Position numbers and translations under genes: made by a program. Under the pieces are notes generated by a model. It was not told the DNA's origin. It did not search any database and worked only from the letters and a program-made list of their open reading frames with translations. A stretch of 49,850 nt of DNA from an uncultured Desulfobacteraceae bacterium (lineage in GTDB: Bacteria > Desulfobacterota > Desulfobacteria > Desulfobacterales > UBA11574): contig CAZDAB010000001.1 of NCBI GenBank assembly GCA_964502855.1, positions 1 through 49,850 of the forward strand, read 5' to 3'. Of this stretch, positions 3,281 through 26,189 are shown in pieces; positions within the stretch are counted from its first letter, which is position 1; each line of letters opens with the position of its first letter.

Positions 3281-3297
3281 ATCTTTCATTGCTAAAC

Positions 3298-4278: not shown

Positions 4279-4384
4279 CAATCTGTATTAATTCAGCCCG
4301 GTCACCGACTGAATGAATGGCAAAGCTTCAAATCCCAACGACGTTTTTGTTGCCCTTTCCGGGAAAGGTTAGGTGCTGTTTTTT

Positions 4385-5812: not shown

Positions 5813-5819
5813 GAAAAAC

Positions 5820-8753: not shown

Positions 8754-8760
8754 CCTTTGA

Positions 8761-10110: not shown

Positions 10111-10117
10111 AATGATC

Positions 10118-11134
10118 TCACTTTAATGAAATTTTATGGAAACTTTTCAAAACGGAAACAAAAGTCTTCATATCCCTTTTCAATATCTGGGTCCTCCTCA
10201 AGGTAAGCGGATCGGCAAAAAATGGGTTGCTCCCCTTTTTTACCGTCACCGCAACCCGATAACCTAAGCGTCTGGTTATTTCTAACACATTTTGATTGTG
10301 TCGTCCATAAGGAAAAGCCAGAAAAATGGTATTTTGTTTCAGCTTCTTATCGATGATCTGTTTGGATACACGGAGTTCCTTTTCAATCCTATCCATAAAC
10401 GCCGAGGTATCTTCGCCTTCCTTCTGCCGGGTGAGGTCGCTGTGAAATACCGTATGTCCACCAATCTCAAAACCGTCTGCTTTCATTATACCGAGTTGCT
10501 TCCAGGTCAGGGAGTTTTTGCATGCATTTATGAAGTCGGTATAAATAAACAATGTGGCATGAAAACCATATTTTTTCAGAATAGGGTAACAAACATCATA
10601 GACGGATCTATAACCATCATCAATGGATATAATCACCGCCTTTTTGGGAATGGCATGACGATATTCAAGAAAATCAATAAGTTGTCTAAAGCTTATGACT
10701 CTGTAGCCATTTTCATAGAGGTATTTCATCTGTTGTTCAAAAATATGGGCAGGCATGCAAAGCGGAGATCTACAATCGTTTGCAAAACGGTGGTAACAAA
10801 GAATAGGAACAACCTGAAATCCATTCGCCGTTAGTCCCCCTATATTTGTCTCTTTGAGGGGAATAATAATCATCTTATTTTTTTCAAAAGAAACATCCTC
10901 ATTGGCGTCCTCTATTACCCAGAATTTTTTTCTATCCCCGAGATATTTTTCAGCCAGTGTTTCCGGCGTTTCTTTATCTTGGAGTTGACAAATAATATAG
11001 TCATTAGATTGAAAAATACCGGCAGTTTTAGCAGTTTTAAAAGTGGCACAGGAGATAAAGAAAAACCATCCAACTGTGCATATAAACAAGGTAATTACTG
11101 AACGTTTAAGTCTGTTAGCCCTCAAACCTTTCAA
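10118..11134 (-). CDS. polysaccharide deacetylase (CE4/NodB-type, PgaB-like) lipoprotein with an N-terminal LysM-like segment
   Basis: CE4 motifs ISIDDGYRSVYD, ATLFIYTDF, IGGHTVFHSDL and AFPYGRHN. TTG start preceded by GGAGGA. Lipobox-like FFISCAT. Confidence 0.85.
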   Translation of the reverse strand: MKGLRANRLKRSVITLFICTVGWFFFISCATFKTAKTAGIFQSNDYIICQLQDKETPETLAEKYLGDRKKFWVIEDANEDVSFEKNKMIIIPLKETNIGGLTANGFQVVPILCYHRFANDCRSPLCMPAHIFEQQMKYLYENGYRVISFRQLIDFLEYRHAIPKKAVIISIDDGYRSVYDVCYPILKKYGFHATLFIYTDFINACKNSLTWKQLGIMKADGFEIGGHTVFHSDLTRQKEGEDTSAFMDRIEKELRVSKQIIDKKLKQNTIFLAFPYGRHNQNVLEITRRLGYRVAVTVKKGSNPFFADPLTLRRTQILKRDMKTFVSVLKSFHKISLK

Positions 11135-11201
11135 AAGATATCCTCCGGTAAAAACATCCGTGTAAATGAATTAAAAAAATAGCAGTCGTTCACGGGGCAA
11201 T

Positions 11202-13175
11202 CTACCAAATATGAATTTTATCCCCTATTTTTGATAGGTTGTCAATGTTTTCTCTTAATTTATCGTCCGGCTTTATCGGCCGTCTCTGGTTTTTAATATG
11301 TCCGTAACTGAATTCAGGCTCTATCTTTACCACATGAACCTGAGCAATAACCGAGGGATCAGGCTGAAAACTTTTCCCCTTATATACAACCGGAGCACTT
11401 TCCTCGATAACATTAAATATCGTACCGGTAACCACCCCTTCACGAGCGCCGAGATTAACAAGAACCTGGTGACCGGAAACCTCGACCACATAAGCCTGCA
11501 TGGGATAATGCAAAATAATGTTGGTAAGAATCTCACGATTTAGCCAGTGCATATCTTTTTTTACCGTTATCTCGGAAGAAAATTGCCGGGTAATTACGTT
11601 GGATTTCTCTGACCTATCCGTATCCATCATGTTTATTTTTAAAAGCGGTCCACCGGGAAGATAATAAACAGACCCTTTGACAAGAAGTGTTGCACCCAGT
11701 GCTCTGGCCAGTCTTAACGTGGTTTCTTTGTCCGCCAGATCCTTTTGATCAAGTCCCAGCGCTTTAACTAAGCGCTCAACCAGGATTCTGCCAACGACTT
11801 GTACCCTCCCGGATGCCTCAAGCTGACGGGTAAGCTGTGCAGAGATTACCGCAACAAATCCGTCTCTTTCAGCCAAGCCGCCCGTTTCCATAAAATCAAA
11901 AAATGACAGTATAACGGCCCGGGATGTCCACGAGTCTTCACCGGAAACATCCTCTTTGATCCCACCGTTATATCTGGCAACCAGTTCTTTGACTTTATCA
12001 TCCAGCATTCTCTTTTTTTCAAGATCCTTTTCGATAAGAAGTCTTTTCTGGGCATTGTCGGCAAGAACCGTTGCGAAAGGATCATTGGGGTCAACGGCCT
12101 GAGCTTTGCGATAGGCTTCAAGTGCCTTTTCCCAATTTCCCTCCCTTTCATAGGTCAATCCCTTGTTTGAGGTGGCCTCAATATAATACGGGTCGATGGC
12201 AACAGCCTGATCATACAACTCCCGAGATTTTTTGTAGTTTCCGCGACCGGCATGGATCCGCCCCAGCTGATTGTATGCCACCGCACTCTGGTAGGGTTCC
12301 GATCCCTTTTTCCGAACAGCTTTTTTATATTCATCCTCAGCTTCCTTGACCTTATTCTGGCGGTATAAAAGATTTCCTTTAACCACATGGACCTGTGCTC
12401 TGTCAGCGGCCTTTTCCTCGACCTCCCTTGCCACCTTAAGCGCTTTTTCAGTTTGTCCTTTTTTAGCATAAACCGTGGATAGCCCTTCTTTTCCCAGAAC
12501 CTCCGCCTCTCCCTTTTTTCTGGAAAGATTGTAAAACGTTTTTTCTGCCTCATCCAACTTTCCCTCTTTCAGTTCCGCATACCCCTGTACGGTTTTAGCC
12601 CTTACGTTTTTCGGATTCTTTTTCACCACTTTTTCGCTGATTGCCAGGGCTATTTTCGTCTGCTTTCGCTGCAGTTTGCGTTCGGCCAGCTTTACCAGCA
12701 TAACCTCAGTGGTTCTGCCGCCGCCTTGAAAATAATCGAGCAGTTTTAAATCGGGCCCTAAAATGCAAATCGTCGGAAGAATCAGCCGGGCATGATAAAG
12801 ATCACTCACTCCTGACGAGTCGATCAGAACCGGAAAAGACGGCTGAAGGGTTGCTATAAATTTATTGACCTTATTTGTTGAAGACCGTGTCACTCCCCAT
12901 ACCATCAAGTCGGCATCTTTGTATTGTTTTGACAGTTGATCGATATTCAACAGGCCTTCCTGGCTGGGCCTTGAGTCAACATCAAAAAAATAAATGATGA
13001 CCATGGGCTGATTTTTCATACTTGACAAATCATAATTTTTTCCCTTTACATCTTTCAGCGAAAACAAGGGAACATGCTGACCCCCCGGAAGCTGGCTGTA
13101 ACAAATACCGGCTGTTGCGACCAGAAAAATCGCTGAAATGAAAAAACAACAAAATATTCTTAATACCGGTTTCAT
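11202..13175 (-). CDS. exported multi-domain protein: thioredoxin/TlpA-like fold lacking the CxxC, then TPR repeats, then a C-terminal region of unassigned fold
   Basis: Signal-like N-terminus. TlpA/redoxin-like layout (PLFSLKDVKGKNYDLSS...PMVIIYFFDVDSRPSQEG...FPVLIDSSG) with SRPS where WCxxC is expected. Multiple TPR-like repeats. Strong RBS GAGGAGGAAG. Confidence 0.7.
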   Translation of the reverse strand: MKPVLRIFCCFFISAIFLVATAGICYSQLPGGQHVPLFSLKDVKGKNYDLSSMKNQPMVIIYFFDVDSRPSQEGLLNIDQLSKQYKDADLMVWGVTRSSTNKVNKFIATLQPSFPVLIDSSGVSDLYHARLILPTICILGPDLKLLDYFQGGGRTTEVMLVKLAERKLQRKQTKIALAISEKVVKKNPKNVRAKTVQGYAELKEGKLDEAEKTFYNLSRKKGEAEVLGKEGLSTVYAKKGQTEKALKVAREVEEKAADRAQVHVVKGNLLYRQNKVKEAEDEYKKAVRKKGSEPYQSAVAYNQLGRIHAGRGNYKKSRELYDQAVAIDPYYIEATSNKGLTYEREGNWEKALEAYRKAQAVDPNDPFATVLADNAQKRLLIEKDLEKKRMLDDKVKELVARYNGGIKEDVSGEDSWTSRAVILSFFDFMETGGLAERDGFVAVISAQLTRQLEASGRVQVVGRILVERLVKALGLDQKDLADKETTLRLARALGATLLVKGSVYYLPGGPLLKINMMDTDRSEKSNVITRQFSSEITVKKDMHWLNREILTNIILHYPMQAYVVEVSGHQVLVNLGAREGVVTGTIFNVIEESAPVVYKGKSFQPDPSVIAQVHVVKIEPEFSYGHIKNQRRPIKPDDKLRENIDNLSKIGDKIHIW

Positions 13176-13204
13176 GACACTTCCTCCTCAATCTTCACAC
13201 GATG

Positions 13205-14485
13205 TTATTCAATAGGTATTAAACGCACATTCAGGGGAGTTTCGCCGGGGTTGCTAATCTGCAGCTGTGCCTCCCACTCAAGATAATCCGGAAGGCTGAC
13301 CCGAACTTCGTATTTCCCAATTGGAATTTCAAGGTTTATGGGGGTATTGCCTTTAAGTGAATCATTTAAAAAAACTTGAGCCCCGGAAGGTGAACTGGTC
13401 ACCATTAGAATTGCATCTACAGGCTTGTTCGCCTCGACACGGGTCGATAAGGAAGATTCAGATTTACCTGTAGTATCCTGCAATTTGGCAGGTTGAAACG
13501 ATTCCGTTACAGCAGATTTTTCGCCATTCGACAGTAATGACGCCTGCTTTTTATGTGCTCCAAAAAAATAGATTGCCCCTCCAAGAACAACTGCCGCCAT
13601 TAGACCCATAATTAAAACAGATGCCACAGGTTTTTTTTTGGGGCTTACCGGTTTTTCGGAGAATAAAAGAAATTCTTTTACCTGAAGACAGGTTTTAAGG
13701 GCATCGCCCATTTCCTTACCGGTTTGAAAGCGTTCATCGGGATTTTTAGATAGGGCTTTCATGATTAGATCAGAGAGCGACTGGGGGATTGACGTGTCAA
13801 TTTTTAAAGGTGCCACGGGAATGTCATCTGTAATGGCCCTGAAGATGGCAGTAAAATGATCTCCCTCAAACGGCTTACGACCCACAATCAATTCATAAAG
13901 GACAACTCCAAGGGAAAACAGATCAGATCGCCCGTCAATCCTTTTCCCCATAACCTGCTCCGGTGACATATAGAAAGGGGTCCCTAAAATCACTCCTGTC
14001 TGGGTTTGTTGAGCCGCATTTGAATCTTCTGCACGGGCAATCCCGAAATCGGTTAGTTTTACCCCCCCCTCATCAGTCAATATAATATTGGAGGGTTTAA
14101 TATCCCTGTGGACAATCCCTTTATTATGAGCATAGCCAAGAGCATGTGCGACCTGTAAAGCAATATCGATTATTTCCTCGACATTCAATCTTCCACTACG
14201 AATCACTTCATTAAAGGCTTGCCCCTGAAGATATTCCATAGCAATGTAAATGGTTCCATGGTCTCGCCCGACATCATATACCGTAACGATATTGGGATGA
14301 GAAAGTCGACCGATGAATTTTGCCTCTTTAAAAAACCGCGACACAAACTCTTCGTTGACCACGCGGTCCACCCGTAACACCTTTAACGCAACCGGTCGGT
14401 CAATCTGAGGATCGTGGGCTTGATAAACCACGCCCATCCCGCCTTTGCCCAATTCTTTTATAATTTCATATCGTCCGTATTTCAT
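13205..14485 (-). CDS. Hanks-type Ser/Thr protein kinase with one TM helix and a C-terminal extracytoplasmic PEGA domain
   Basis: Kinase motifs GKGGMGVVY, VALK, HRDIKPSNIIL, DFGIA and SPEQ. TM helix VLIMGLMAAVVLGGAIYFF. PEGA-like SSPSGAQVFLNDSLKGNTPINLEIPIGKYEVRVSLPDY. Confidence 0.9.
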   Translation of the reverse strand: MKYGRYEIIKELGKGGMGVVYQAHDPQIDRPVALKVLRVDRVVNEEFVSRFFKEAKFIGRLSHPNIVTVYDVGRDHGTIYIAMEYLQGQAFNEVIRSGRLNVEEIIDIALQVAHALGYAHNKGIVHRDIKPSNIILTDEGGVKLTDFGIARAEDSNAAQQTQTGVILGTPFYMSPEQVMGKRIDGRSDLFSLGVVLYELIVGRKPFEGDHFTAIFRAITDDIPVAPLKIDTSIPQSLSDLIMKALSKNPDERFQTGKEMGDALKTCLQVKEFLLFSEKPVSPKKKPVASVLIMGLMAAVVLGGAIYFFGAHKKQASLLSNGEKSAVTESFQPAKLQDTTGKSESSLSTRVEANKPVDAILMVTSSPSGAQVFLNDSLKGNTPINLEIPIGKYEVRVSLPDYLEWEAQLQISNPGETPLNVRLIPIE

Positions 14486-14643
14486 TAATAATTGTGCTAA
14501 AATTATCCGTCTGAAACAATATCCTTAATTTTTGCATCGGCAGTGAATATGGTTTCGGAAATCCATATGAACCCGATAAAAAATATTGAACATCGGCGAG
14601 TTTAAAAGGAAAAAAACAATTATTTTGGAATTCGTTTTTTTAT

Positions 14644-15372
14644 TCATAGTATTTCAGCGAGAACCACTGTGATATTATCCTTTCCTCCGGCGGATATGGC
14701 CATTTCAATAAGTTTTTCAGTCTGTTGGGGCAAGGCAATGTCTGAATAAAGGACCTGGCCGATGAGATGGTCATCGATCATATCGGTCAGGCCGTCTGAG
14801 CAGAGAAGAAACAGATCGCCGGAATACGTTTTCCCTTTTAAAATATCGAGAGCTAAATTTTCATTGATGCCCACGGCTCGCAGGATGACGTTGCGAAGGG
14901 AATGGCTTTTAGCTTCTTCAGGTGTAATCAACCCCTGATCTATCTGGTCCTGCACAAGAGAATGATCCTTGGTAAGCTGCTTAAGTTGACCATTCCGGAT
15001 ACGGTAGATTCGGCTGTCTCCAATATGGCCGATTAAAAAGCCGTGCTCGTGAAAAGCCACGAGTTCAGCGGTGCAGCCCATTCCCTGGTGATGGGGATTC
15101 TCCCTTACATACTCTAAAATCCTTTCATGGGCGGAACGGAACGTCTTTTTAACCTTCTCAAGCATGTTATCTTCAGATTGATCATTATCGGCTGAAAAAA
15201 CTTCAAGTGCTGTTTCAGTAAACATTCGACTGGCCAATTCACCGGCGGCAGCACCGCCCATTCCATCCGACACAAGGCAAAATCCAATATCAGGTTTGAT
15301 GAGAAACGTATCTTCGTTATTCGGGCGAATAAGCCCAACATCTGTTTTTCCAAAATAATTTATTTTTGACAT
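14644..15372 (-). CDS. PP2C-family Ser/Thr protein phosphatase (Stp/PppA-like)
   Basis: PP2C motifs RPNNEDTF, VSDGMGG, GCTAEL, IGDSRIY, LLCSDGLTD and GGKDNITVV. Confidence 0.9.
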   Translation of the reverse strand: MSKINYFGKTDVGLIRPNNEDTFLIKPDIGFCLVSDGMGGAAAGELASRMFTETALEVFSADNDQSEDNMLEKVKKTFRSAHERILEYVRENPHHQGMGCTAELVAFHEHGFLIGHIGDSRIYRIRNGQLKQLTKDHSLVQDQIDQGLITPEEAKSHSLRNVILRAVGINENLALDILKGKTYSGDLFLLCSDGLTDMIDDHLIGQVLYSDIALPQQTEKLIEMAISAGGKDNITVVLAEIL

Positions 15373-15419
15373 AACTTTAAAAAACCAAGAAACAACATAA
15401 AAAACGCGTACACAGCTTT

Positions 15420-17054
15420 TTAGGTCGTTTCTTCGGTTGCTCCGAAGTTCTTCCTCATGAATTCTGAAAGATCGGAGGCATCGTAAGATTTATTCAATTT
15501 ATTTCTCAGGATTATCAGATCATTATGGATTTCCTGCGTGGTTTGATACCTTAATTTTTTATCTTTTTCCAAACATTTCATCACAATTCTGTTTAGCGCT
15601 TCCGGGATATCCGGCCTTAGGCTGATCAGAGGGGGAATCTCTATTTTAGGAATGGAGCGAATGGCCTCTATATGATTATCAAATCGATACACCTTATTAT
15701 AGGAAAGTATTTCATAAAAGACGAGCCCCAGTGCATAGATATCAGCCTGATGGTCTACCTCCTGCCCCAGTACCTGTTCAGGAGCCAAATAAGATAGTTT
15801 TCCTTTAATTACACCGGCCTGGGTCATACTGGGCTCAGAACGTGCTTTGGAAATTCCAAAATCGGCTATTTTCACTTCTCCTAGAAATGAAATCAGCATG
15901 TTTTGGGGGCTTATATCCCGATGTACAATATGTAACGGTTCGCCACTTCTATCATCCTTTCTTGTATGGGAGTACGTCAGTCCCATACATATTTTCATTA
16001 TAATAAAAATGGAAAGATCAACAGGAAGCCCTTGTTTTAAGTGCGCCATGATTTCACCCAGGTTTTTTCCCGGAATATAGTCCATTGCAATTAAATAAGC
16101 GTTCTGTATCTTACCGAAATCAATAATCTGGACGATGTTTGGGTGTTGTAGCAACGCGGCGAGCCTGGCTTCACGAATAAACATTTTTATAAAATCTTGG
16201 TTTTCGGATAGGTGGGGAAGTATTTTTTTAATGGCAACCGTTCTCCGAAAACCATCTTCACGAATGTAGTCCGCGATAAACAGCTCGGCCATTCCGCCCT
16301 TTGCGATCTGCTTTATTAACACATAAGGACCGATTTTTACCATTCCTTCGACTTCTTTCCGAATTTTTCTTGCTTTTGCCCGGAAGATACGATCAACAAA
16401 AAATAAAATCACCGCCGCCAGAATGGTGCTAAGGAACAGCATTGACAAAAATATCATCCGGAATCTGCTTAACGCATGGTTAAGTTCCGTGGAAGACATC
16501 ACGTAATATACCTTGCCGATTTTTACCCCGGAATAGGAGATATCTTGGGAAAAGCGGAAAAGCGGTTTATTGTCATCTCCTCCTTTTCCGGTCTCAATAT
16601 ATACACCATCAACGATTTTTACCTCTCTTAAATCCTTAAAAGACATCAATGGACGGTTGGTCATCTCAGGGTCGGAGTGCGCCAGGACCTTATTTTTGTG
16701 GTCAAGGATCGCCGCAAAAACCAGATTTTTGTTTTTTGCAAATTCCCCGATAGCAACATTCAAAGTAAGTACATCTTTTGCCAGCAACGAGGAACTGGTT
16801 TTTGCAGACAGGCTCTGGGTCGCAGATATCCCTTTTTGATAAAAATCATTTTTCAGGCCCGTTACAGCATTGTGGTATATTAAAAAGCCGCATACATTAA
16901 TGATTAGCCAGGAGGTAAGACATATAACAATGCTTTTTTTGTTCCGTTTAACAAACTCAATACTAAATAGTTTTTTGGAAATAGCAGAAAAGGTTTTTGT
17001 TGAAAATTGTTTTACCCATAACATAGTCGTTGAAACTTTTTCACTAACACTCAT
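15420..17054 (-). CDS. Hanks-type Ser/Thr protein kinase with an N-terminal TM-flanked extracytoplasmic sensor-like domain
   Basis: Kinase motifs AKGGMAELF, VAIKK, HRDISPQNMLI, DFGISK and APEQ. An N-terminal ~200 aa is bounded by two TM helices. I prefer ATG 17054 (RBS GGGGAG) over the tracked TTG 17090. Confidence 0.85.
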   Translation of the reverse strand: MSVSEKVSTTMLWVKQFSTKTFSAISKKLFSIEFVKRNKKSIVICLTSWLIINVCGFLIYHNAVTGLKNDFYQKGISATQSLSAKTSSSLLAKDVLTLNVAIGEFAKNKNLVFAAILDHKNKVLAHSDPEMTNRPLMSFKDLREVKIVDGVYIETGKGGDDNKPLFRFSQDISYSGVKIGKVYYVMSSTELNHALSRFRMIFLSMLFLSTILAAVILFFVDRIFRAKARKIRKEVEGMVKIGPYVLIKQIAKGGMAELFIADYIREDGFRRTVAIKKILPHLSENQDFIKMFIREARLAALLQHPNIVQIIDFGKIQNAYLIAMDYIPGKNLGEIMAHLKQGLPVDLSIFIIMKICMGLTYSHTRKDDRSGEPLHIVHRDISPQNMLISFLGEVKIADFGISKARSEPSMTQAGVIKGKLSYLAPEQVLGQEVDHQADIYALGLVFYEILSYNKVYRFDNHIEAIRSIPKIEIPPLISLRPDIPEALNRIVMKCLEKDKKLRYQTTQEIHNDLIILRNKLNKSYDASDLSEFMRKNFGATEETT

Positions 17055-17099
17055 AATTTTCTCCCCGCCATTGCAGACAATCGTGGCCAATAATACCGG

Positions 17100-17981
17100 T
17101 TATCCAACAGCAAGTTTTTTTATGATTTCAGTGCATCGAAAAATCACCTGACGCTTCAGCCACCCCAAGTCTTCTCTATTTGAAACTTCTGACAGACGAA
17201 TCCCTTTCAAAGGTCGAAATCCGACCGGATTAAATCCATCCTGCACTGATTTGACAATTAGAAATTTGTCCAGATTAATATGGGAAAAACGTTCCCGAGA
17301 GAATGGTTGTTCTGCCCCGCATAAGGGACAGGACATATTTGAATTTTCAATAAATGCACGGGTAAAAGAGACTTTTGGACCATATCGGGCTTTCAATGCA
17401 TCCGTGATCGGCCTGAAGCCTTTAAAATAAAGGCCGGTCAGTACAAACACCAGTATGATAAAGCTAGAAATAGAAATGAGAATAAATCCATACCTAATTC
17501 TATTTATCCAGTCTGCAGAATAACTCAGATAAAATTTGCCGATTCGGGTTGCGGCATAAATTATATCAGTAGAAAAATTGATGGTCCGACGATGACGGTT
17601 GGAAGAGCCTTCCCAAACGGATACATGATCCGAGCTGGACACACCTTCACTTTTAAGCGGTACGAGCTGGTTAGGATCGGTATAGGCAATAATTTTATTT
17701 TTATGATCCATAATGGAAGCATACGACACACCCGGTCTTTTTTCCACATCCTGTAGTATCTTTCTTAAGGACGTTACATCACGCTCAAGAAGCGGCAAGC
17801 TTGTTTTACCGGTAACTTCATGCAGCAATGCCACCCCGGATTGAGTAATATGGTTTTTGAACTTTTCTATCTTAAAGGAAATAATTACATACCCAATGAC
17901 GATAACCAACCACCATATTGCCACACACAGAAAAAGACGACTCTTTTTTATACTGCCCGTATCTTTCTTTTTAAAGTTCAT
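17100..17981 (-). CDS. membrane protein carrying a paralogue of the kinase sensor domain, plus a cytoplasmic tail with a CPLC motif
   Basis: Aligns by eye to the N-terminal domain of the downstream kinase: LLERDVTSLR/LLAKDVLTLN, ASIMDHKNKIIAYTDPN/AAILDHKNKVLAHSDPE, FSTDIIYAATRIGKFYLSYS/FSQDISYSGVKIGKVYYVMS. Two TM helices. Confidence 0.65.
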   Translation of the reverse strand: MNFKKKDTGSIKKSRLFLCVAIWWLVIVIGYVIISFKIEKFKNHITQSGVALLHEVTGKTSLPLLERDVTSLRKILQDVEKRPGVSYASIMDHKNKIIAYTDPNQLVPLKSEGVSSSDHVSVWEGSSNRHRRTINFSTDIIYAATRIGKFYLSYSADWINRIRYGFILISISSFIILVFVLTGLYFKGFRPITDALKARYGPKVSFTRAFIENSNMSCPLCGAEQPFSRERFSHINLDKFLIVKSVQDGFNPVGFRPLKGIRLSEVSNREDLGWLKRQVIFRCTEIIKKLAVG

Positions 17982-18324
17982 TAATAAGTTGCCTCATTGA
18001 TTACAAATTGCAATGACAGAAATAAAATCAAGGCATTTGATTATGCCGCATTTTAGATTTTTATGCATATACAATAGGTTAGAAGTTAAACATGTAACTT
18101 TTTAATAAGCTCTGGTGTATGAAATAATCATATTGACCCGGCCCCGTAATTCATTGAGATGTTACTTAAAAACCTAATGAAAATTATTATAATACCAGAA
18201 TATTGTCAAGAAACTTATCGGGTGGTTTATCCCGAACCTAAACGAAACAACCCTTTATCCGTTCACCAAGGGTTCTAAAAAGCATTATTCTTGAATTCGT
18301 GATTATGCTATGCTATAAATGTTT

Positions 18325-18354
18325 TTGACAAGCAAACGGTTAATAAAGATTAAT
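18325..18354 (+). promoter_or_regulatory. candidate sigma70-type promoter for the dual-FHA gene, within a 440-bp AT-rich divergent intergenic region (17982-18421)
   Basis: TTGACA (18325-18330), an 18-nt spacer, then ATTAAT (18349-18354), about 65 nt upstream of ATG 18422. This is a consensus match only. Confidence 0.25.
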
Positions 18355-18421
18355 TCCAGCCGGCCTTGCATCTGTTATGGTTACGGTGAATTTAAATTTC
18401 AAAAGAAAATAAGGCGTTATT

Positions 18422-19330
18422 ATGATGAATAGACCGGTTATTGTTATGCAGCTTATTCATATTGAGGGGCCTTTGAAAGGCGAAATCCAGGAATTTTCTA
18501 ATCCTGAAATCTCCATTGGAAGGCATCCGTCCTGTCACATTCAGTTTCCCAAAGACGTAAAAATTGTTTCCCGAAAACATGCCCAGATTATCCGGGAGGG
18601 GAATCGGTTTAAACTGATTAATCATAGCCAAAACGGAACATTTTTAAACGGAAAAAGAATCCCGGAAGCGTATTTAAAAGACGGGGACGTGCTGATTTTT
18701 GCCCAAGGCGGGCCAAAGGTTAGTTTTTTAACAAAAATTGAAGCGGGTCAGACGGATATCGATATCGTAACACCCGTTACACCGGTGCCACCTCAGATGC
18801 CTCCGGAAATGCCTCCGGCAGTCCCCTCTGCTGAACCGCCCCCGGTGCCGCCGATCCAACCAAAACCACAGCCTGCTCCTGAAATTTCCATTCAAAAAAT
18901 ACAGGTTCCGCTCATTATACAATACGGCCCTACGCTCCGGTCCTTTAATGAACTGCCCGTTACCATCGGAAAAGGCCCGGGCTGCGATTTTATTCTGGAT
19001 CACCCTTCAGTTTTCGATCAACATGCCCAGCTATTTTTCAGCCAGAATCGATACTGGGTAAAAGACCTTACCGGCCGTCAGTCTGTGTCCATTAACGACC
19101 AGCCAATCAATATTAAATCACCCCTCAATCCCAACAACCAGTTGGCATTGAGTCCACAGGGACCCAGGTTTCGGTTTTTGGAAGGGGGCCGGTTGGCTGA
19201 GATTGAAGAAACTGTCTCCGAATCTCCGGTGGATGAGGCGCCTGTGGAAAAGAAATCCTCACTCCAGACAAAACCCAAAATGGATGGGGCTAAAAAGCCG
19301 GGGTCAATTTTTAAAAAATTATTCTCTTGA
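18422..19330 (+). CDS. cytoplasmic protein with two FHA domains separated by a proline-rich linker
   Basis: FHA1: ISIGRHPSCHIQFPKDVKIVSRKHAQIIREGNRFKLINHSQNGTFLNGKRI. FHA2: VTIGKGPGCDFILDHPSVFDQHAQLFFSQNRYWVKDLTGRQSVSINDQPI. Linker: PVTPVPPQMPPEMPPAVPSAEPPPVPPIQPKPQPAP. Confidence 0.85.
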   Translation: MMNRPVIVMQLIHIEGPLKGEIQEFSNPEISIGRHPSCHIQFPKDVKIVSRKHAQIIREGNRFKLINHSQNGTFLNGKRIPEAYLKDGDVLIFAQGGPKVSFLTKIEAGQTDIDIVTPVTPVPPQMPPEMPPAVPSAEPPPVPPIQPKPQPAPEISIQKIQVPLIIQYGPTLRSFNELPVTIGKGPGCDFILDHPSVFDQHAQLFFSQNRYWVKDLTGRQSVSINDQPINIKSPLNPNNQLALSPQGPRFRFLEGGRLAEIEETVSESPVDEAPVEKKSSLQTKPKMDGAKKPGSIFKKLFS

Positions 19331-19335
19331 CAGTT

Positions 19336-20853
19336 TCAGCCTTGTAATCTCGCTTTTTCCGAAGCCAGTGGATTATCAAAATTATATCCGAACAGACGGG
19401 GATTTTCACCGATGACTGCGGCAGAGAAAATCGAAAAAACGTAATCATACGTTTGGGCGGGGATCTTATCGCGGTATTGGGAAATCAATTGCCAGAAATT
19501 TCTTTCACGCGGATTTTCGGGCATGGACTCAATCAGTTTAATCACCCGATCTTCGCCCCAATTGTAGGATGCCATTACAAGCAGCCCGGAAGCCTGGGCG
19601 TCCGTGGTATAAATATCCTTCAAGTACCTCGCGGCGGCCAGGGTTGATTTTCTAAAATCGTGGCGGTCATCATCAGGGTCGGGAATGGGTTTGTCGACCA
19701 GGGAGCCCGTATTCAAGTCATATGCCTCGGCGGTTGAAGGGATAAACTGCCACATCCCCTTGGCGATGCCGAACCGAGTTTCCGGGCCGCAGGCATTGGG
19801 GTTTAAATTGCTTTCTTGAAGGGCCAGATAAAAAAATTGCGGCGGCAGGTTATACATAGAAAGGGTCTGAACGATTGTAGGAATGTAACCTCTTGACCTT
19901 GCCCGTTTGATCGCTTGTTCCAGACGGTGGTTTGATTTCCATTTCTCGACATATTTCATGACTTCTTTGACAAATCCTTCGGGCATATTGACTTCACACT
20001 CCCCAAACCGGCGCGACACGTGCAAAATGATCCGCTCCTCCTCACTCAACCCTTTGCGGTACACGTTAAGCGTATCCACAAACCGGTCATAATTTCGTTC
20101 CAATTGCTGTTGTTTGGCCCTGAATTCTTTAATTTGCTTTTTAGACTCGGCGGTCCGGCGCTTTTTGACATCTTTTATCACCTTTCCTACCTCAATTTCC
20201 AGAGTCTTCATGTTGTAGAAAATATCAGCAGCCAGCTCGCGCTGCTGGCGCACTTGTCTATGTTTGTAAACGGCATAACCGCCGGTCAGGATGCACAAAA
20301 CCGCAATAACCGAAATAATTGAGACATACATCCACCGCTGTTTTTTTTTGACCTCGGCATAGGCTCGGCGCACCATCAGAGTATGTTCGCCAGCAGTATC
20401 ATCTGCTGTCTGGCCGAAGTAATGCTCTTTGTAGTCGCTGATCGTTCGGGAATCGGAAACAGGGGATTCGGGAACAGAGGGTTCGAGAACAGGAGGTTCG
20501 GAAACAGGAGGTTCGGAAACAGGGGGTTCTTGCAGCACGGCTTTTTCAAGTTCAAATATAAGGCCAGGCCCGGAAATACCCAAGCGGACGCGGATAGTAC
20601 CGGATAGCGGAAACCGGTCAATTTTGCGGTCTTCGATAAACACCCCGTTACCACTTTCCAGATCTTGAATCCACCAGCGGCCGTCTTCTTTAAACACATC
20701 CGCATGATACCGGCTGACCCCTTTGTTTTTGATCTGCAACTGACAGCTTGAATGCCTTCCGATGCGAAACCGATCTGTAAAAACAAATTCAGTGACAGCA
20801 GCCAATCCGCTTTCAATTCTAACCTTCAGTGTCGGGGCGTCGGAAGATCCCAT
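19336..20853 (-). CDS. FHA domain - single TM helix - SLT-type lytic transglycosylase fusion protein
   Basis: N-terminal FHA (FRIGRHSSCQLQIKNKGVSRYHADVFKEDGRWWIQDLESGNGVFIEDRKI). TM helix WMYVSIISVIAVLCILTGGYAVY. C-terminal SLT motifs LALQESNLNPNA, GIAKGMWQFIPSTA and MASYNWGEDRV. Confidence 0.85.
   Translation of the reverse strand: MGSSDAPTLKVRIESGLAAVTEFVFTDRFRIGRHSSCQLQIKNKGVSRYHADVFKEDGRWWIQDLESGNGVFIEDRKIDRFPLSGTIRVRLGISGPGLIFELEKAVLQEPPVSEPPVSEPPVLEPSVPESPVSDSRTISDYKEHYFGQTADDTAGEHTLMVRRAYAEVKKKQRWMYVSIISVIAVLCILTGGYAVYKHRQVRQQRELAADIFYNMKTLEIEVGKVIKDVKKRRTAESKKQIKEFRAKQQQLERNYDRFVDTLNVYRKGLSEEERIILHVSRRFGECEVNMPEGFVKEVMKYVEKWKSNHRLEQAIKRARSRGYIPTIVQTLSMYNLPPQFFYLALQESNLNPNACGPETRFGIAKGMWQFIPSTAEAYDLNTGSLVDKPIPDPDDDRHDFRKSTLAAARYLKDIYTTDAQASGLLVMASYNWGEDRVIKLIESMPENPRERNFWQLISQYRDKIPAQTYDYVFSIFSAAVIGENPRLFGYNFDNPLASEKARLQG
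20451..20529. repeat. in-frame 15-bp tandem repeat (~5.3 copies) encoding (E)PPVS repeats in the FHA-SLT linker
   Basis: Units aatcggaaacagggg / attcgggaacagagg / gttcgagaacaggag / gttcggaaacaggag / gttcggaaacagggg. Protein: EPPVSEPPVSEPPVLEPSVPESPVSD. Confidence 0.85.
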
Positions 20854-21043
20854 TTTATTTATGCCTGTAACCGGATCGAGTGTTTATTTGGGGAAACCGG
20901 CTTTAAGAAAGCCTTTGGGTGAACCTTCACCGTGAAAAGGATCAGATAGCAGAAAACTTTAAAAAAGAGACCCCATAAAATCCAAACCCGGTTATTTTTG
21001 TTTAAAATGAGGATCTTTTTCCTTTGTTTTTCTATGGCCATTC

Positions 21044-21415
21044 TCAGGGGATATCGGTGGTCATCTGCCCCGGAAAAGTGATGGAGATTACGCCACCCCA
21101 TGTGCACATGCACTTGCTCGTGTCATTCAGGGCCGGCGTGTTGCCAATGAGTACGGTCGGTGAACCGGCCGCCCAGGGCGTGGCGGTCACCGGCATGCAT
21201 GGCACCGGCACCCCCAGCGCCGCTATCACGGCCGGGTTCGTGGGGGCGGAGCACATTCCGAATGGCAGAATGTTGACCACAGGGATGTAATCCATTATGT
21301 TTGCCGCAGGCTGGTTATTCACCATCACCCGGTTGACCGGCAGAACAATTAGGGACGCCGGGGCCACACCAAAGCTACACTGCATCATGGCCCCATTAAC
21401 TACCTGTTTTGGCAT
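21044..21415 (-). CDS. DUF4280 (PAAR-like) spike-tip domain protein
   Basis: MPKQVVNGAMMQCSFGVAPASLIVLP... and a C-terminal SKCMCTWGGVISI are typical of DUF4280. RBS GGAAGGAG. Located in the vgrG-adaptor neighbourhood. Confidence 0.85.
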   Translation of the reverse strand: MPKQVVNGAMMQCSFGVAPASLIVLPVNRVMVNNQPAANIMDYIPVVNILPFGMCSAPTNPAVIAALGVPVPCMPVTATPWAAGSPTVLIGNTPALNDTSKCMCTWGGVISITFPGQMTTDIP

Positions 21416-21436
21416 TGTAAAAGACTCCTTCCTATT

Positions 21437-21631
21437 TTACCGGGAATGAAAATTTATCCCGTTAAACGCAAAGCATGGCCCCCATCCTGGCCAGGCCTCG
21501 GTTCCGGCTATAAAACTACTGCCGGGTTTTAGCACAACAAGACCCGCCGGTGACCCGCCCTGTACCCTAACCAGAGGAACACGAGTCCACTCCAAGGAAG
21601 TAGAAGTAACACCCGCTATCTTCTGTCTCAC
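21437..21631 (-). CDS. possible small ORF (64 aa, GTG start) filling the gap between the DUF4123 and DUF4280 genes
   Basis: Its GTG start overlaps the DUF4123 stop as GTGA, a geometry compatible with translational coupling. It ends 21 nt before the DUF4280 start. There is no recognisable motif, so coding status is unproven. Confidence 0.25.
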   Translation of the reverse strand: MRQKIAGVTSTSLEWTRVPLVRVQGGSPAGLVVLKPGSSFIAGTEAWPGWGPCFAFNGINFHSR

Positions 21632-22173
21632 AAATTAACCGCATTCTCAATCAGTTTAGATTGCTCCGTACAAACAAATTCAATCAACTGCTTTTCATTT
21701 TTTCCTTCGGCATAGTAACGCGACACCGCACCAAACATGGTCTCGAGCTGTTCCCGATCGCATGTGGGCAAAAATACGCGCAGTACCCTCGGATCATAAT
21801 ACCTGAAAAAAAGGGTTTTTGCGTCTTCATCGGTGACCCTCAAAAAACTCCGAAAATGATTCCGCAATTTTACAAATGTTGCTGTTGATTCGGCAAATAT
21901 CCCCCAGCTCTTTCCCCACCCCTGATCCAAAAGCCATTGGGTGAACGGATCATCTTCATCAAGCTCAATCAGATATGGTGCAACAGTGGCGAGTTCGCGG
22001 GCCTGTTTCCCGATAAGAAGGCAGTCCTTTTTGTTGTCGGATTCCGCCAGCTTTGGATAGATAACGTTGTCTCTCGCAGCATCCAGTATGGCATATATCT
22101 TACCCTGATCCTGTCTGTCCCTCGACCATAACATCCGCTTTACGGCATTCAAAAAATCATTCGAATCTGACAT
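21628..22173 (-). CDS. DUF4123-family T6SS effector adaptor/chaperone
   Basis: IYAILDAARD, VAPYLIELD, GKSWGIFAES and FFRYYDPRVLRVFLPTC match the DUF4123 pattern. The gene lies immediately downstream of vgrG. Confidence 0.8.
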   Translation of the reverse strand: MSDSNDFLNAVKRMLWSRDRQDQGKIYAILDAARDNVIYPKLAESDNKKDCLLIGKQARELATVAPYLIELDEDDPFTQWLLDQGWGKSWGIFAESTATFVKLRNHFRSFLRVTDEDAKTLFFRYYDPRVLRVFLPTCDREQLETMFGAVSRYYAEGKNEKQLIEFVCTEQSKLIENAVNL

Positions 22174-22227
22174 TTTTAATCCTGTTTTTTCTTTTGAGCC
22201 GGCACGGGCTCATTCGGGTTACGTCGG

Positions 22228-24306
22228 TCATGTTTCACAGAACGGCGTTCCGGATTGTGCCGCCTGATTGAAGGTTAGCGCCTGCGGGGTAAGCTCTGTT
22301 GCCTCAACCTCCGCCGGGGTTAAGCTCGGCAGTTCCGATGTTCTACCGGGTTCGGTCGTATCCGCCTCTTCCGGTTCATCGGGTGAGGCAGGGGAACACC
22401 CGGAACCGGAACCCGCAGACCCGCCGCTGTTGATCATGACCATAGCTCCCGATATGCTGACGCCGGAAGGACCAATATCTATAAAACTGCCGGAGGCTTT
22501 CAATGACACCTGCATGCCGGCTTCTATAACCACCTTAGAACCGCCTTTAATGTGGACATCCCCGTACGCATCAAGCGCATAATTCCCTCCCGCCTTTTCC
22601 AGTATGTCACCGGATTCACTCTGAATAGAAATCGTACCTGATACTTTTTCCTTATGATCCCCACTCACCGTCAGGTTCTTATCTCCATCCACCTTTTCAA
22701 GCTGGTTTTCCGTTATGATCAGGTGGCGGCTTTCGCCCACAAATTCACGGCATTTATCTTTTGCCCGGGTATCCAGCGTTTTTTCCGCTTGAATGAAAAG
22801 CTGTTCCTCGCCGGCTTTATCCTCGAACCGAATTTCATTGACTCCGCCGGTGTCCGGGACAGACATGCTTTTTATGGTTGATCGGGTCTTTTGGTCAGGC
22901 AAAGAATAAGGCGGCGTGTTGCTGCTGTTATAAACACAGCCTGTGATAATGGGCCTGTCAGGATCACTTTCAAGAAAACCCACGATCACTTCATGGCCGA
23001 TGCGGGGAAGAAATAGGGTCCCCCATCCTGCTCCGGCCCAGCTCTGGCTTACGCGAACCCAGCAGGAACTTTTCTCATTGTACTGCCTTGCCCGGTCCCA
23101 GTGGAACTGGACCTTGACCCTCCCATATCCCTCATCATCCGTATGGATTTGTTCTCCTTCGGGGCCCACGACAATAGCCGTCTGAACGCCGGCGATCATG
23201 GGTTTGGGTGTAATTAAGGACGGCCGGTATGGGACATCATGAGGGACACATGTAAAACTGTTGCCATACGTATAAGATGATTGCCCCTCCTGCCCGGAAC
23301 TTCCCGCAGTCTCAGAGGCCCTATGATTTACGCCAGTAATCACATAGGTATGGTCATTTAGTTCATCCCGAAAATGACCGGCAAGATCATACTTGTACCC
23401 GCCTGAGAAGCCTGTGCAGGTACTTGCCCCCGCAAAGGATGTCGTTCGCACCTCCTCTGCCTGCATGCGTATATTGGCCAGTCTTTCCCCCTCGGCTCGT
23501 GTCTTGTATTCTGCCGGGAAATCATATACTTCGCGCTCCCCCGGACCCAGGGGAGTTTGGCAGTTAACCCCAACCATCAAATCCGTATTCGGCGTATCCG
23601 GATTAAAGTCATTTACGGTGTATTTCCCGATTCTGATCTCCTGCCTCTTATCAAGATCGGTTATGACATCGTCCGGGGGTGTTCCTCCCACGCTTAGGGG
23701 ATGAAGCCGAACCGGCTCCGCATAAGGACAATCCGGGTGTTTATCCGGGGCATCCCCTAAAACCATGGTATGCTTCGCGTTTTCGTGTTGGAAAAAATAG
23801 AATATTCCCTCCTGCTCCAGGAGCCTGGAGACAAAATTAAAATCCGTTTCAGCGTACTGAACGCAGTATTCCTTTGGCTCGTAGCTGCCCAGATCCATCC
23901 TGAAGTCGGTAAATCCCTTTTCAGTAAAGACCTGTTCCACGATTTCAGGAACGGTTTTTTCCTGAAATACTCTCGAATTGGTCGTCTTGGTAAGCAGCCA
24001 GAACCACGGAACCAGTGTTGCCGAATAACGCGCCAGGCCAGAGTCCCCGGCGCCGCTATCTTGAGAAAAACGCGATATTAAACCGTTAAAAAATCGCGCA
24101 GTGCCCTCTTCTGTTCCAATGGCAACCGTAACATTTCCTCCGATAATCTGGTCAAATGCAATGCGACTGTTTTCTGACACAAGGCTCATTTCAAAGGAAA
24201 AAGGAACACAAAGTCCTTCGTTTCCCGAAAACCTCGTGAGCAACACAACATCATCACCCAGCGGTGTAGCAATGCGCAGCATTCGATTTTCTTGTGTAAG
24301 CGTCAT
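22228..24306 (-). CDS. vgrG: T6SS spike protein VgrG (TssI)
   Basis: gp27-like N-terminus (LRIATPLGDDVVLLTRFSGNEGLCVPFSFEMSL). gp5 OB region (WVRVSQSWAGAGWGTLFLPRIGHEVIVGFLESDPDRPIITGCVYN). Beta-helix repeats. C-terminal acidic/Pro tail ending AAQSGTPFCET. Confidence 0.95.
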   Translation of the reverse strand: MTLTQENRMLRIATPLGDDVVLLTRFSGNEGLCVPFSFEMSLVSENSRIAFDQIIGGNVTVAIGTEEGTARFFNGLISRFSQDSGAGDSGLARYSATLVPWFWLLTKTTNSRVFQEKTVPEIVEQVFTEKGFTDFRMDLGSYEPKEYCVQYAETDFNFVSRLLEQEGIFYFFQHENAKHTMVLGDAPDKHPDCPYAEPVRLHPLSVGGTPPDDVITDLDKRQEIRIGKYTVNDFNPDTPNTDLMVGVNCQTPLGPGEREVYDFPAEYKTRAEGERLANIRMQAEEVRTTSFAGASTCTGFSGGYKYDLAGHFRDELNDHTYVITGVNHRASETAGSSGQEGQSSYTYGNSFTCVPHDVPYRPSLITPKPMIAGVQTAIVVGPEGEQIHTDDEGYGRVKVQFHWDRARQYNEKSSCWVRVSQSWAGAGWGTLFLPRIGHEVIVGFLESDPDRPIITGCVYNSSNTPPYSLPDQKTRSTIKSMSVPDTGGVNEIRFEDKAGEEQLFIQAEKTLDTRAKDKCREFVGESRHLIITENQLEKVDGDKNLTVSGDHKEKVSGTISIQSESGDILEKAGGNYALDAYGDVHIKGGSKVVIEAGMQVSLKASGSFIDIGPSGVSISGAMVMINSGGSAGSGSGCSPASPDEPEEADTTEPGRTSELPSLTPAEVEATELTPQALTFNQAAQSGTPFCET

Positions 24307-24476
24307 AACATCCCACCTTTTCTTGCCAGATTAGTATTTTTCCGGCTCCGTGAAATAAGTGCCAAGACAAGGCGTGCAAATAATTACATAAATACCAATG
24401 AAACCCGTCATTGTCAATAGTATTGAAATGTTAGGGACAAATCAAATTATAGGGTGTTGAAGACAAAAAATGAGTT

Positions 24477-26045: not shown

Positions 26046-26189
26046 GGCAACACCTCTCAATGCGAAGAGAATATGCATTAATCCCCACATTAAATTTAAT
26101 CTTTTCATTGAATATATGGCCGTAAGCCCTATAATATCTTGCAAAACCCGGCCACTTATTATGTCCCATCCGAGTCGCCCCCTTCGTAG

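Follow-up and report, generated by a model that had tools for sequence, protein, structure and literature searches.

Background

What controls a type VI secretion system (T6SS) whose genes lie beside two receptor-type Ser/Thr kinases, a phosphatase and two forkhead-associated (FHA) proteins, and which of these genes belong to it? The question is raised by a stretch of 49,850 nucleotides from an uncultured Desulfobacteraceae bacterium (GenBank assembly GCA_964502855.1, contig CAZDAB010000001.1), hereafter called the window. The window is a whole contig (C1) of a metagenome-assembled genome (MAG) that is 59% complete and consists of 975 contigs. An initial annotation, made from the sequence without database searches, described a block of six genes: two Hanks kinases with different extracytoplasmic domains, a kinase-less copy of one sensor, a PP2C phosphatase, a dual-FHA protein and an FHA-lytic transglycosylase. 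All six genes are real, lie at the positions reported there and have the architectures described, as judged by Pfam domains, hydropathy and motifs (Table 1).

Post-translational control of T6SS is known from few Proteobacteria, in each of which a single kinase acts with a single phosphatase and a TagH-type Fha protein. In the H1-T6SS of Pseudomonas aeruginosa a periplasmic signal leads to cytoplasmic threonine phosphorylation and then to FHA-dependent assembly (PMC13584744). The pathway of Agrobacterium tumefaciens runs from the kinase PpkA through TssL carrying a phosphothreonine (pThr-TssL) to Fha (PMC3953482; PMC13584744). In Acidovorax citrulli, Fha phosphorylated by PpkA forms membrane condensates that recruit T6SS parts (PMC12607579). 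In the literature searched we found no description of a dual-kinase, PEGA-kinase or FHA-SLT switch of T6SS, nor any of T6SS control by phosphorylation in Desulfobacterales. Nothing resembling the parts of this locus is listed in a 2026 review on the accessory genes of T6SS (PMC13584744).

The current work compares the locus with 300 order-level Desulfobacterales genomes. The switch appears to be a version of the T6SS threonine-phosphorylation pathway that has not been described before. It is built differently, with the FHA reader apart from a TagH remnant, and seems to serve another large group of T6SS, with about 40 relatives among the 300 genomes. We regard it as rather probable, with ample room for doubt, that the locus provides lineage-specific threonine-phosphorylation control of the adjacent T6SS and is composed of two modules, A and B, of separate evolutionary history.

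Results

Co-inheritance with one T6SS subtype

Six query genes were searched for in the 300 genomes, 92 of which encode TssC. The six are TssC itself; the tandem-FHA protein (FHA2x); the kinase with an extracytoplasmic PEGA domain (STK_PEGA, below the PEGA kinase); the FHA-lytic transglycosylase (FHA_SLT); the kinase with a Cache-like sensor (sCache_STK, below the Cache kinase); and unk764, the first gene of the T6SS cluster. For the PEGA kinase, a cut-off of E<=1e-100 leaves a clean gap to a housekeeping kinase of 860 aa at about 1e-81.

FHA2x was found in 45 genomes. TssC is present in 39 of them, compared with 53 of the 255 genomes that lack FHA2x, and the other six carriers are all less than 90% complete. 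The PEGA kinase occurs in 36 genomes, of which 32 have TssC, 31 have unk764 and 33 have FHA2x. Of 16 genomes with FHA_SLT, 15 have both TssC and unk764. The unk764 gene itself was found in 43 genomes; TssC accompanies it in 41 and FHA2x or the PEGA kinase in 39. FHA2x and unk764 occur together in 38 genomes, FHA2x alone in seven and unk764 alone in five, and only three of the 51 TssC-positive genomes without unk764 carry FHA2x. The odds ratios for FHA2x, the PEGA kinase and FHA_SLT against TssC and unk764 range from 25 to 270. These counts assign the triad of kinase, phosphatase and FHA protein to one T6SS subtype, which is marked by unk764 and by a TagH-like gene devoid of an FHA domain.

The initial annotation had made its proposal depend on co-conservation of the block with the T6SS. 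Such co-conservation was found for FHA2x, the PEGA kinase and FHA_SLT. It was not found for the Cache kinase and its kinase-less paralogue: the former is present in 28 genomes, 13 with TssC and 15 without.

Two modules in the gene neighbourhoods

Neighbourhoods of FHA2x were read in 20 genomes (loci L065-L084; L and G numbers denote loci and genomes of our sample) and those of the Cache kinase in 33 loci. Module A consists of the PEGA kinase, PP2C, FHA2x, a trypsin-like protease (Tryp), a protein with a thioredoxin fold and tetratricopeptide repeats (AhpC_TPR) and, often, FHA_SLT. Its layout is a sheath paralogue with FHA2x, divergent from PP2C-Tryp-STK_PEGA-AhpC_TPR (L066-L084), and it lies directly beside TssA, TssC, VgrG or ClpV in L078-L082. 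FHA_SLT is close to this layout in L065, L075 and L083. The order PP2C-Tryp-STK_PEGA was seen in 14 loci, and AhpC_TPR lies downstream of the PEGA kinase in L001, L015, L050, L066-L068, L071, L075, L078-L080, L082 and L083. In at least 14 genomes the fused sheath paralogue lies directly next to FHA2x and points the same way. PP2C adjoins FHA2x or the PEGA kinase in 16 of the 20 loci; where module B is present, it comes after the Cache kinase.

Module B comprises the Cache kinase, its kinase-less paralogue (sCache_only), PP2C, a LysM-TPR lipoprotein, a deacetylase lipoprotein and the MBOAT and AlgX/SASA genes. Here LysM-TPR and the deacetylase are divergent from sCache_only-sCache_STK-PP2C, with sCache_only almost always directly upstream of the kinase gene. 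The two lipoprotein genes adjoin this pair in about 22 of the 33 loci and in all examined loci without T6SS. In six T6SS-less genomes PP2C is followed by an FHA-adenylate/guanylate cyclase, MBOAT and AlgX/SASA; the run of PP2C and FHA-cyclase, then MBOAT-AlgX_SASA, was read in L012, L013 and L114-L122.

The two modules meet in a fused operon, sCache_STK-PP2C-(Tryp)-STK_PEGA-(AhpC_TPR), in L001, L015, L020, L022, L023, L050, G029 and G155. This set spans distant genera, namely the Eth-SRB2 group and Desulfatitalea-like genomes. In Desulfatitalea (L022) the fused module, which there includes a fused sheath paralogue (L022:4238-5809), is surrounded by housekeeping genes, and the nearest TssC is about 80 kb away. 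The modules are fused in the window as well, with module B complete except for the FHA-cyclase (3289-11134, 15420-17981). Searches of this MAG, of Eth-SRB2 and of the congener G103 (100% complete) found no orthologue of the FHA-cyclase; hence the FHA proteins of the locus are the T6SS-linked ones only. In addition, the Cache kinase is located immediately upstream of unk764-TagH-like-TssJKLM in at least ten genomes (L003, L004, L005, L007, L025, L030, L031, G017, G227 and G258) and beside FHA2x and the sheath paralogue in L011, L021, L026 and L019.

On these neighbourhoods the functional unit would reach from about 3289 to 20853, plus 24477-26144 and 45595-48610. The block first described (13205-20853) was thus drawn too narrowly, for its partners outside include the protease, the Trx-fold/TPR protein, the LysM-TPR lipoprotein, the deacetylase, the sheath paralogue and unk764. 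A promoter and terminator scan of positions 8500-21700 gave 36 and 16 candidates, respectively, compared with 26±5 and 15±5 in shuffled sequences. As these counts are not above the shuffles, we draw no operon boundaries in this region.

Two further observations concern the modules. The G+C content is 0.40-0.45 over the kinase/FHA block (12000-20000) and 0.49-0.52 over the vgrG-clpV arm of the T6SS (20000-32000), a shift consistent with separate histories of the two. The eight-gene form of module B, with the FHA-cyclase as reader, is conserved in the T6SS-less loci L114-L122, L012, L013 and L027, followed in L027 by a SulP transporter that binds cyclic nucleotide monophosphates (cNMP). These eight genes have the look of a signalling unit, so far uncharacterised, that leads from Ser/Thr phosphorylation to cNMP and is linked with the O-acetylation and deacetylation of glycans.

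The threonine-motif tail of unk764

At least 324 homologues of unk764 exist, every one annotated as "hypothetical", and within the subtype the protein is 650-800 aa long. Residues 1 to about 560 (46931-48610) form a globular part that contains a Zn-ribbon and three conserved CxxC pairs. Residues 561-764 (about 46319-46930) form an acidic, disordered tail; its predicted local distance difference test score (pLDDT) in the AlphaFold2 (AF2) model is below 35.

In the window the tail carries five copies of the motif [DE]-Φ-x-E-T-V-I-L-S-P. Between two and six copies are present in 25 of 26 unk764 orthologues, down to 31% identity, while the remaining tail is not conserved. Relative to composition, non-redundant unk764 tails show a 230-450 fold enrichment of TVIL and ETVI, and across 30 homologues T688 and T747 are invariant or nearly so. 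Outside unk764 the motif occurs only twice among the 14.7k residues encoded in the window. It resembles the activation loops of the kinases themselves (TQTGVILGTP in the PEGA kinase). The key position holds Thr 38 times and Ser once, though Ser is the commoner residue in the tails.

FHA domains are strictly selective for phosphothreonine over phosphoserine, and pT-x-x-I/L is one class of their ligands. Hanks kinases and FHA domains favour an upstream acidic residue, Thr, and a hydrophobic residue at +3. The Thr to Ser ratio of 38:1 fits this pThr-only specificity. We infer that the unk764 tail is a candidate phospho-acceptor and a docking scaffold for FHA domains.

The globular part gave no significant Foldseek match with its AF2 model of moderate quality (best E 0.34). 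Nearly all of the top 50 matches are protein-kinase domains, with target TM-scores (TMt) of at most 0.41, and the putative catalytic-loop Asn is not conserved. This is a weak hint, below significance, at a kinase-like and perhaps degenerate fold.

The FHA proteins

The dual-FHA protein does have two FHA domains, as first described. In a 38-sequence alignment FHA1 keeps the canonical GR...SR.H...NG pattern (GR33, SRKH50 and NGT71 in the window). FHA2 has lost the Arg and Ser that bind phosphothreonine and is therefore probably no pThr binder. The protein also has a Pro-rich linker and, at its C terminus, a basic amphipathic tail (KKPGSIFKKLFS); the last 12 codons of the gene encode a conserved motif of this kind, KKxGS[IL]FKK[LF]F. 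In two orthologues (L075, L083) a true transmembrane (TM) helix takes the place of this tail. Its conservation and its replacement by a TM helix suggest that the tail is a membrane-targeting sequence and imply that FHA2x acts at the membrane. A candidate self-inhibitory Thr in the FHA2x tail (EETVSESP) was rejected, as it is not conserved in orthologues.

FHA_SLT is the final gene of the vgrG-DUF4123-PAAR arm. The GR, SR.H, S.NG, QES, GMWQF and YNWGE motifs are invariant in 119 homologues; in the window the catalytic and substrate motifs are QES346, GMWQF366 and YNWG430. The SLT domain lies C-terminal to a single TM helix. With its catalytic Glu and predicted periplasmic location, it points to a family-1 lytic transglycosylase.

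Kinases, phosphatase and sensor paralogue

The catalytic or binding residues of the PEGA kinase, PP2C, FHA1 and FHA_SLT are intact. The PEGA kinase has canonical motifs (GKGGMGVV, VALK, HRDIKPSN, DFG, SPE); hydropathy gives a single TM helix at residues 287-305, and Pfam places PEGA at the C terminus. It is the predicted PpkA/TagE analogue of module A. PP2C is the only phosphatase of the locus and common to both kinases. It has all metal-binding motifs and scores 238 bits with the NCBIfam Stp1/IreP family (cut-off 230); in the NCBIfam scan it was the sole protein of the kinase/FHA block above a family cut-off.

The Cache kinase has 33 full-length orthologues in Desulfobacterales. Its clade has an atypical catalytic loop, HRD[IV]SPQN (HRDISPQN in the window), with Ser in place of Lys in 37 of 40 orthologues. 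The glycine-rich loop of the clade is degenerate, being shortened to IAxGGMA, whereas K, E, D, N and DFG are preserved. The clade is an atypical subfamily of Hanks kinases.

The kinase-less paralogue ends in a conserved cytoplasmic tail, CPLC...WLKRQxIxRCxEIIKKLA, in place of a kinase domain. Pfam sCache_3_2 matches of the sensor are below threshold (23-24 bits, cut-off 28.4). Residues 60-156 of the paralogue are modelled by AF2 with pLDDT 74-92, and Foldseek matched this model to the sCache/PDC domains of WalK, CitA and KinD (E 3e-7 to 1e-4, TMt 0.5-0.6). The structural matches thus back the single-Cache/PDC assignment, and the fold lies between two TM helices, as in single-Cache (PDC) sensors. 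By its 30% identity to the modelled paralogue, the sensor of the kinase itself would share the Cache/PDC fold.

The TagH-position gene

As the initial annotation stated, the gene at the TagH position has no FHA domain, and tagF and tagJ are present. The C-terminal T6SS_FHA_C match of the TagH-like protein recurs in eight of nine orthologues, with a best E of 2e-5. The gene has no NCBIfam match, and a profile search of PDB sequences gave no match. FHA2x scores 65.8 bits with the TagH family TIGR03354 (cut-off 120.25); the match is confined to the FHA domain, and FHA_C is missing from the protein. No TagH/Fha1-type reader, with an N-terminal FHA and a C-terminal T6SS_FHA_C domain in one protein, was found at the locus. 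The TagH function may be split between FHA2x and the TagH-position protein. NCBIfam has no T6SS-specific family for either kinase, FHA2x, the TagH-like gene or unk764.

Discussion

A model of the switch

Domain architectures, predicted topologies, patterns of joint inheritance and location and the conservation of motifs are observed here; we infer from sequence the phosphorylation targets, the binding of FHA domains to the motif, the role of the SLT domain and the effect on T6SS firing. The PEGA kinase, aided by the periplasmic trypsin-like protease and the Trx-fold/TPR protein, would phosphorylate threonines in its own activation loop and in the unk764 repeats, and in this lineage the Cache kinase would probably do so too. 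The disordered unk764 tail is the likeliest phospho-acceptor. The pThr sites would be bound by FHA1 of the membrane-tethered FHA2x, and PP2C would reverse the modification. Multivalent binding of this kind could bring unk764, the TagH-like protein and TssJKLM together at a single place on the membrane, which would start assembly. FHA_SLT would be a second reader that docks at the same phospho-site and cuts peptidoglycan locally, allowing the membrane complex to be inserted. TagF may antagonise the process, as in known systems.

Module B would be a portable envelope sensor, which in T6SS-less genomes signals through the FHA-cyclase. Here the cyclase would have been lost and the cassette fused around the single PP2C, so that the same FHA readers could receive another signal from the periplasm, which probably reports on the condition of the cell wall or of an envelope glycan. 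The multi-input, multi-reader switch first proposed is thus supported in part: module A is co-inherited with the T6SS, and the Cache kinase pair is not specific to it. Since 15 of 28 carriers of the cassette lack TssC, "two inputs into the T6SS" would be a lineage-specific fusion.

Several points weigh against this model, most of them concerning the Cache kinase. Its association with TssC is weak: 13 of 28 carriers have TssC compared with 79 of the other 272 genomes (p=0.08). Many of the 15 carriers without TssC are at least 94% complete. The ancestral role of the cassette is clearly independent of the T6SS. G216 and G249 carry the cassette on another contig than the T6SS and module A. With the catalytic-loop Lys gone and the glycine-rich loop degenerate, the activity of the kinase is uncertain; it may be a weak catalyst, and its input to the T6SS is the least secure step of the model. 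Three unk764 genomes without FHA2x (G085, G273, G275) retain variant Thr motifs and all have FHA_SLT, so the assignment of the reader is not unique, and the motif could be a non-phospho docking motif that forms a β-strand. The TagH-like assignment depends on sub-threshold matches. The Fisher tests of co-occurrence ignore phylogenetic relatedness, and their orthologue cut-offs were set by eye. Finally, in the nearest public relative, Desulfobacteraceae bacterium Eth-SRB2, the kinase block is on contig RPGQ01000021 and the T6SS, ending with DUF4123-PAAR-FHA_SLT, on RPGQ01000047.

A bolder form of the model gives unk764 the central place. It would be a new core-like component of the T6SS subtype, possibly pseudokinase-like, with a tail that serves as a pThr array written by the two kinases, erased by PP2C and read by the two FHA proteins; the scaffold would set the site of nucleation and wall opening. 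FHA2x would in this case act together with the fused sheath paralogue and with the TagH remnant that lacks an FHA domain. We put this forward tentatively, as a reading that is rather less probable than not.

Alternative explanations

The alternative that survives best holds that only module A controls the T6SS, and that module B is a separate envelope-glycan signalling system, concerned with O-acetylation and deacetylation of peptidoglycan or exopolysaccharide, that shares the operon and the phosphatase. It agrees with the intact module B of T6SS-less genomes, which has its own FHA-cyclase reader, and with the many Cache-kinase carriers that lack TssC. The cassette is unlinked from the T6SS in G216 and G249: in the near-complete G216, contig 2 has FHA2x, then PP2C-Tryp-STK_PEGA-AhpC_TPR, then unk764 ... 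TssC, and the Cache kinase is on contig 1. The window also retains all lipoprotein and acetylation genes of the cassette. However, the FHA-cyclase is absent here and from the two nearest relatives, leaving T6SS-linked FHA proteins as the only ones at the locus. Both kinases flank one PP2C in the same direction, and this fused operon recurs in distant genera. Moreover, the Cache kinase directly precedes unk764-TagH-like-TssJKLM in at least ten genomes, and carriers of the unk764-type T6SS usually hold the cassette inside the T6SS/FHA locus. We consider such a division of labour a serious but doubtful possibility, and retain control of the T6SS by both modules as the preferred reading.

FHA_SLT invites another explanation, in which it is not an assembly factor but antibacterial cargo of the vgrG-DUF4123-PAAR arm, that is, a peptidoglycan-cleaving effector. 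Peptidoglycan glycosidases are a known class of T6SS effectors, the gene occupies the usual effector slot after vgrG, DUF4123 and DUF4280 with no other effector following the adaptor, and the order DUF4123-PAAR-FHA_SLT is kept in Eth-SRB2. The topology is nevertheless that of a resident bitopic inner-membrane protein with intact pThr-binding residues, and it is hard to see what an FHA domain would do in a secreted toxin. No immunity gene follows FHA_SLT; the next gene is the convergent FHA2x. In other genomes (L065, L083, G255, G114, G234) FHA_SLT is found apart from vgrG, with FHA2x or the kinases as neighbours. An effector role is improbable in our view, and the gene is kept here as a putative reader of the switch.

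The adjacency of the block and the T6SS was examined at the FHA2x/FHA_SLT junction. Eth-SRB2 is 90% identical to the window in the Cache kinase (amino acids) and about 92% in the kinase block (nucleotides). At the DNA level its two contigs align to window positions 6109-19329 and from 19335 onward, so that the breakpoint falls exactly on the 5 nt separating the stop codons of the convergent genes FHA2x and FHA_SLT (19330-19335). In this split FHA_SLT goes with the T6SS and FHA2x with the kinases. L002, an independent and more divergent MAG, has the same arrangement as the window and aligns across the junction in one stretch of 3075 nt. A chimeric contig at the junction was therefore rejected: the adjacency is real, and Eth-SRB2 is either rearranged or mis-joined. 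That the kinase/FHA block is a general Ser/Thr signalling island placed here by rearrangement or assembly artefact, as the Eth-SRB2 break, the G+C shift and the 59% completeness of the MAG might suggest, is strongly disfavoured and very unlikely, given the span in L002, the odds ratios for FHA2x, the PEGA kinase and FHA_SLT, the co-location with T6SS genes in many different gene orders and the place of FHA_SLT at the PAAR end of the T6SS even in Eth-SRB2.

Comparison with known systems

The locus resembles the H1-T6SS of P. aeruginosa (TagE/PpkA, TagG/PppA, TagH/Fha1) in that a membrane Hanks kinase, a PP2C, an FHA reader and TagF accompany a T6SS. As in TagE/TagG-type control, the membrane Hanks kinase is T6SS-linked and co-inherited, and it has a cognate PP2C. 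PpkA of P. aeruginosa has a periplasmic von Willebrand A (VWA) domain. Here the ectodomain is PEGA or Cache instead; neither kinase has a VWA domain by Pfam, which finds PEGA on one and an sCache-like domain on the other. The TagQRST proteins are also missing: no ABC-type gene and no TagQ or TagR member was found among window open reading frames of at least 100 aa (RtkS was not specifically searched for). In their stead the kinase is accompanied by the trypsin-like protease and the Trx-fold/TPR protein. The FHA reader is a separate tandem-FHA protein, and the TagH-position gene has lost its FHA domain. A second kinase, an FHA reader fused to a lytic transglycosylase and unk764 with its multi-Thr tail come in addition.

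The acceptor proposed here would be, as in Agrobacterium, a T6SS-locus protein other than Fha, with Fha purely a pThr reader. TssL, however, lacks the N-terminal extension (DotU covers residues 3-211 of 225 aa), and the pThr-TssL model was rejected on this ground. The proposed acceptor is the set of unk764 repeats, which is multivalent rather than single-site. The remark of the initial annotation that the wiring differs from described systems is thus borne out, since a TagH-type Fha, a VWA-type PpkA, TagQRST and the TssL extension are all missing.

In the TssW-PpkA-Fha system of A. citrulli the kinase and phosphorylated Fha serve at the inner membrane as a scaffold for assembly and positioning. 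The locus shares a possible principle with it, as a pThr-repeat tail and a tandem-FHA adaptor could scaffold likewise. No TssW-like gene was recognised here, and the components are orthologous at the domain level only. Condensate formation at this locus is pure conjecture by analogy.

Local peptidoglycan remodelling is needed for insertion of the T6SS membrane complex, by MltE in enteroaggregative Escherichia coli and by TagX in Acinetobacter (PMC13584744). FHA_SLT is similar in being a predicted periplasmic peptidoglycan-cleaving enzyme tied to a T6SS, and it shares Slt/MltE-type catalytic motifs. By contrast, TagX is an L,D-endopeptidase and MltE a lipoprotein with a housekeeping role, recruited by way of TssM; FHA_SLT is bitopic. 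Its cytoplasmic FHA domain would make recruitment dependent on phosphorylation, a coupling not described in the review (PMC13584744).

Finally, the locus recalls the Gram-positive and mycobacterial signalling of PknB/Stk1, Stp1/PstP and FhaA/FhaB(FipA). The best NCBIfam matches are of PknB/Stk1, Stp1/IreP and FhaB/FipA type, and in both cases the genes are linked to peptidoglycan-modifying genes. The extracellular domain of WalK is the closest structural match of the Cache sensor, and the kinase-less paralogue is reminiscent of auxiliary sensor subunits such as the auxiliary membrane proteins of WalK. Unlike PknB-type signalling, the locus has no PASTA domains and belongs to a Gram-negative envelope; its readers are FHA2x, FHA_SLT or, elsewhere, the FHA-cyclase, and the matches are domain-level and below family cut-offs except for PP2C.

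If the preferred reading is correct, the Thr repeats of unk764 offer a concrete candidate, open to test, for the target downstream of FHA signalling that has long been sought. Through a lytic transglycosylase gated by its FHA domain, phosphorylation could be coupled directly to the opening of the cell wall for membrane-complex insertion. The locus would also be an example of modular evolution, in which a sensor-kinase cassette with an FHA-cyclase readout elsewhere has apparently been rewired to a secretion system. Carriers include syntrophic partners of alkane-oxidising archaea, and T6SS have been proposed to act in partner interactions (PMC10553843). Cultured carriers (Desulfosarcina, Desulfospira) make the predictions testable.

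Other features of the locus

The features discussed above are collected in Table 1. Topology and domains were assigned from Pfam, translations, hydropathy (TM helices) and motif positions.

Table 1. Positions of the genes of the two modules and of selected T6SS genes in the window
Feature	Position	Strand	Description and supporting matches
Trypsin-like protease (Tryp)	3289-4278	+	Pfam; usual site between PP2C and STK_PEGA
MBOAT	4373-5812	+	Pfam; distal module B gene
AlgX/SGNH-SASA protein	5769-8753	+	Pfam; distal module B gene
LysM-TPR lipoprotein	8761-10110	-	Pfam; lipobox-like N-terminus
Polysaccharide-deacetylase lipoprotein	10118-11134	-	Pfam; lipobox-like N-terminus
AhpC_TPR	11202-13175	-	Exported thioredoxin-fold protein with TPR array; AhpC-TSA 1.4e-12
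STK_PEGA (PEGA kinase)	13205-14485	-	Bitopic Hanks Ser/Thr kinase with extracytoplasmic PEGA; Pkinase 6e-59, PEGA 4.5e-13
PP2C	14644-15372	-	Ser/Thr phosphatase, putative PppA/TagG analogue; PP2C_2 1.9e-16
sCache_STK (Cache kinase)	15420-17090	-	TM, periplasmic sensor of ~140 aa, TM, Hanks kinase; Pkinase 1.3e-37
sCache_only	17100-17981	-	Kinase-less paralogue of the Cache sensor; TM-sensor-TM, 30% identity to the sensor of the kinase
FHA2x	18422-19330	+	Tandem-FHA adaptor; Pfam FHA 4e-31, two stretches
FHA_SLT	19336-20853	-	Cytoplasmic FHA, TM (177-195), periplasmic SLT; FHA 1.2e-14, SLT 3.2e-15
DUF4123 adaptor and PAAR-like DUF4280	21044-22173	-	
Fused VipA-VipB sheath paralogue	24477-26144	-	VipB 1.6e-73, VipA 2.4e-17
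DUF4157 (eCIS_core) protein	26190-27482	-	
tagJ (ImpE)	37882-38691	-	Pfam ImpE 1e-34
tagF	38731-39510	-	Pfam TagF_N 6e-11
TagH-position gene	45595-46311	-	T6SS_FHA_C 20.7 bits, below the 23.7 cut-off; no FHA domain
unk764	46316-48610	-	First gene of the T6SS cluster, 764 aa; no Pfam or NCBIfam family

The T6SS-i cluster is complete, tagF and tagJ included, and is encoded on the minus strand between 48610 and 21044. Its order, starting at 48610, is unk764, the TagH-position gene, tssJ, tssK, tssL, tssM, tagF, tagJ, tssA, tssB, tssC, hcp, tssE, tssF, tssG, clpV, DUF4157, the fused VipA-VipB gene, vgrG, DUF4123 and the PAAR-like DUF4280. The DUF4157 (eCIS_core) protein thus lies between clpV and the sheath paralogue. 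The DUF4123 adaptor gene is followed only by the PAAR-like DUF4280, with no obvious effector/immunity pair.

In AhpC_TPR, the active-site Cys pair is not visible in the thioredoxin-fold domain. Residues 444-503 of this protein give weak matches to LpoB, an activator of penicillin-binding proteins (Pfam 9e-4, NCBIfam 1.4e-3), which makes a link to peptidoglycan synthesis possible.

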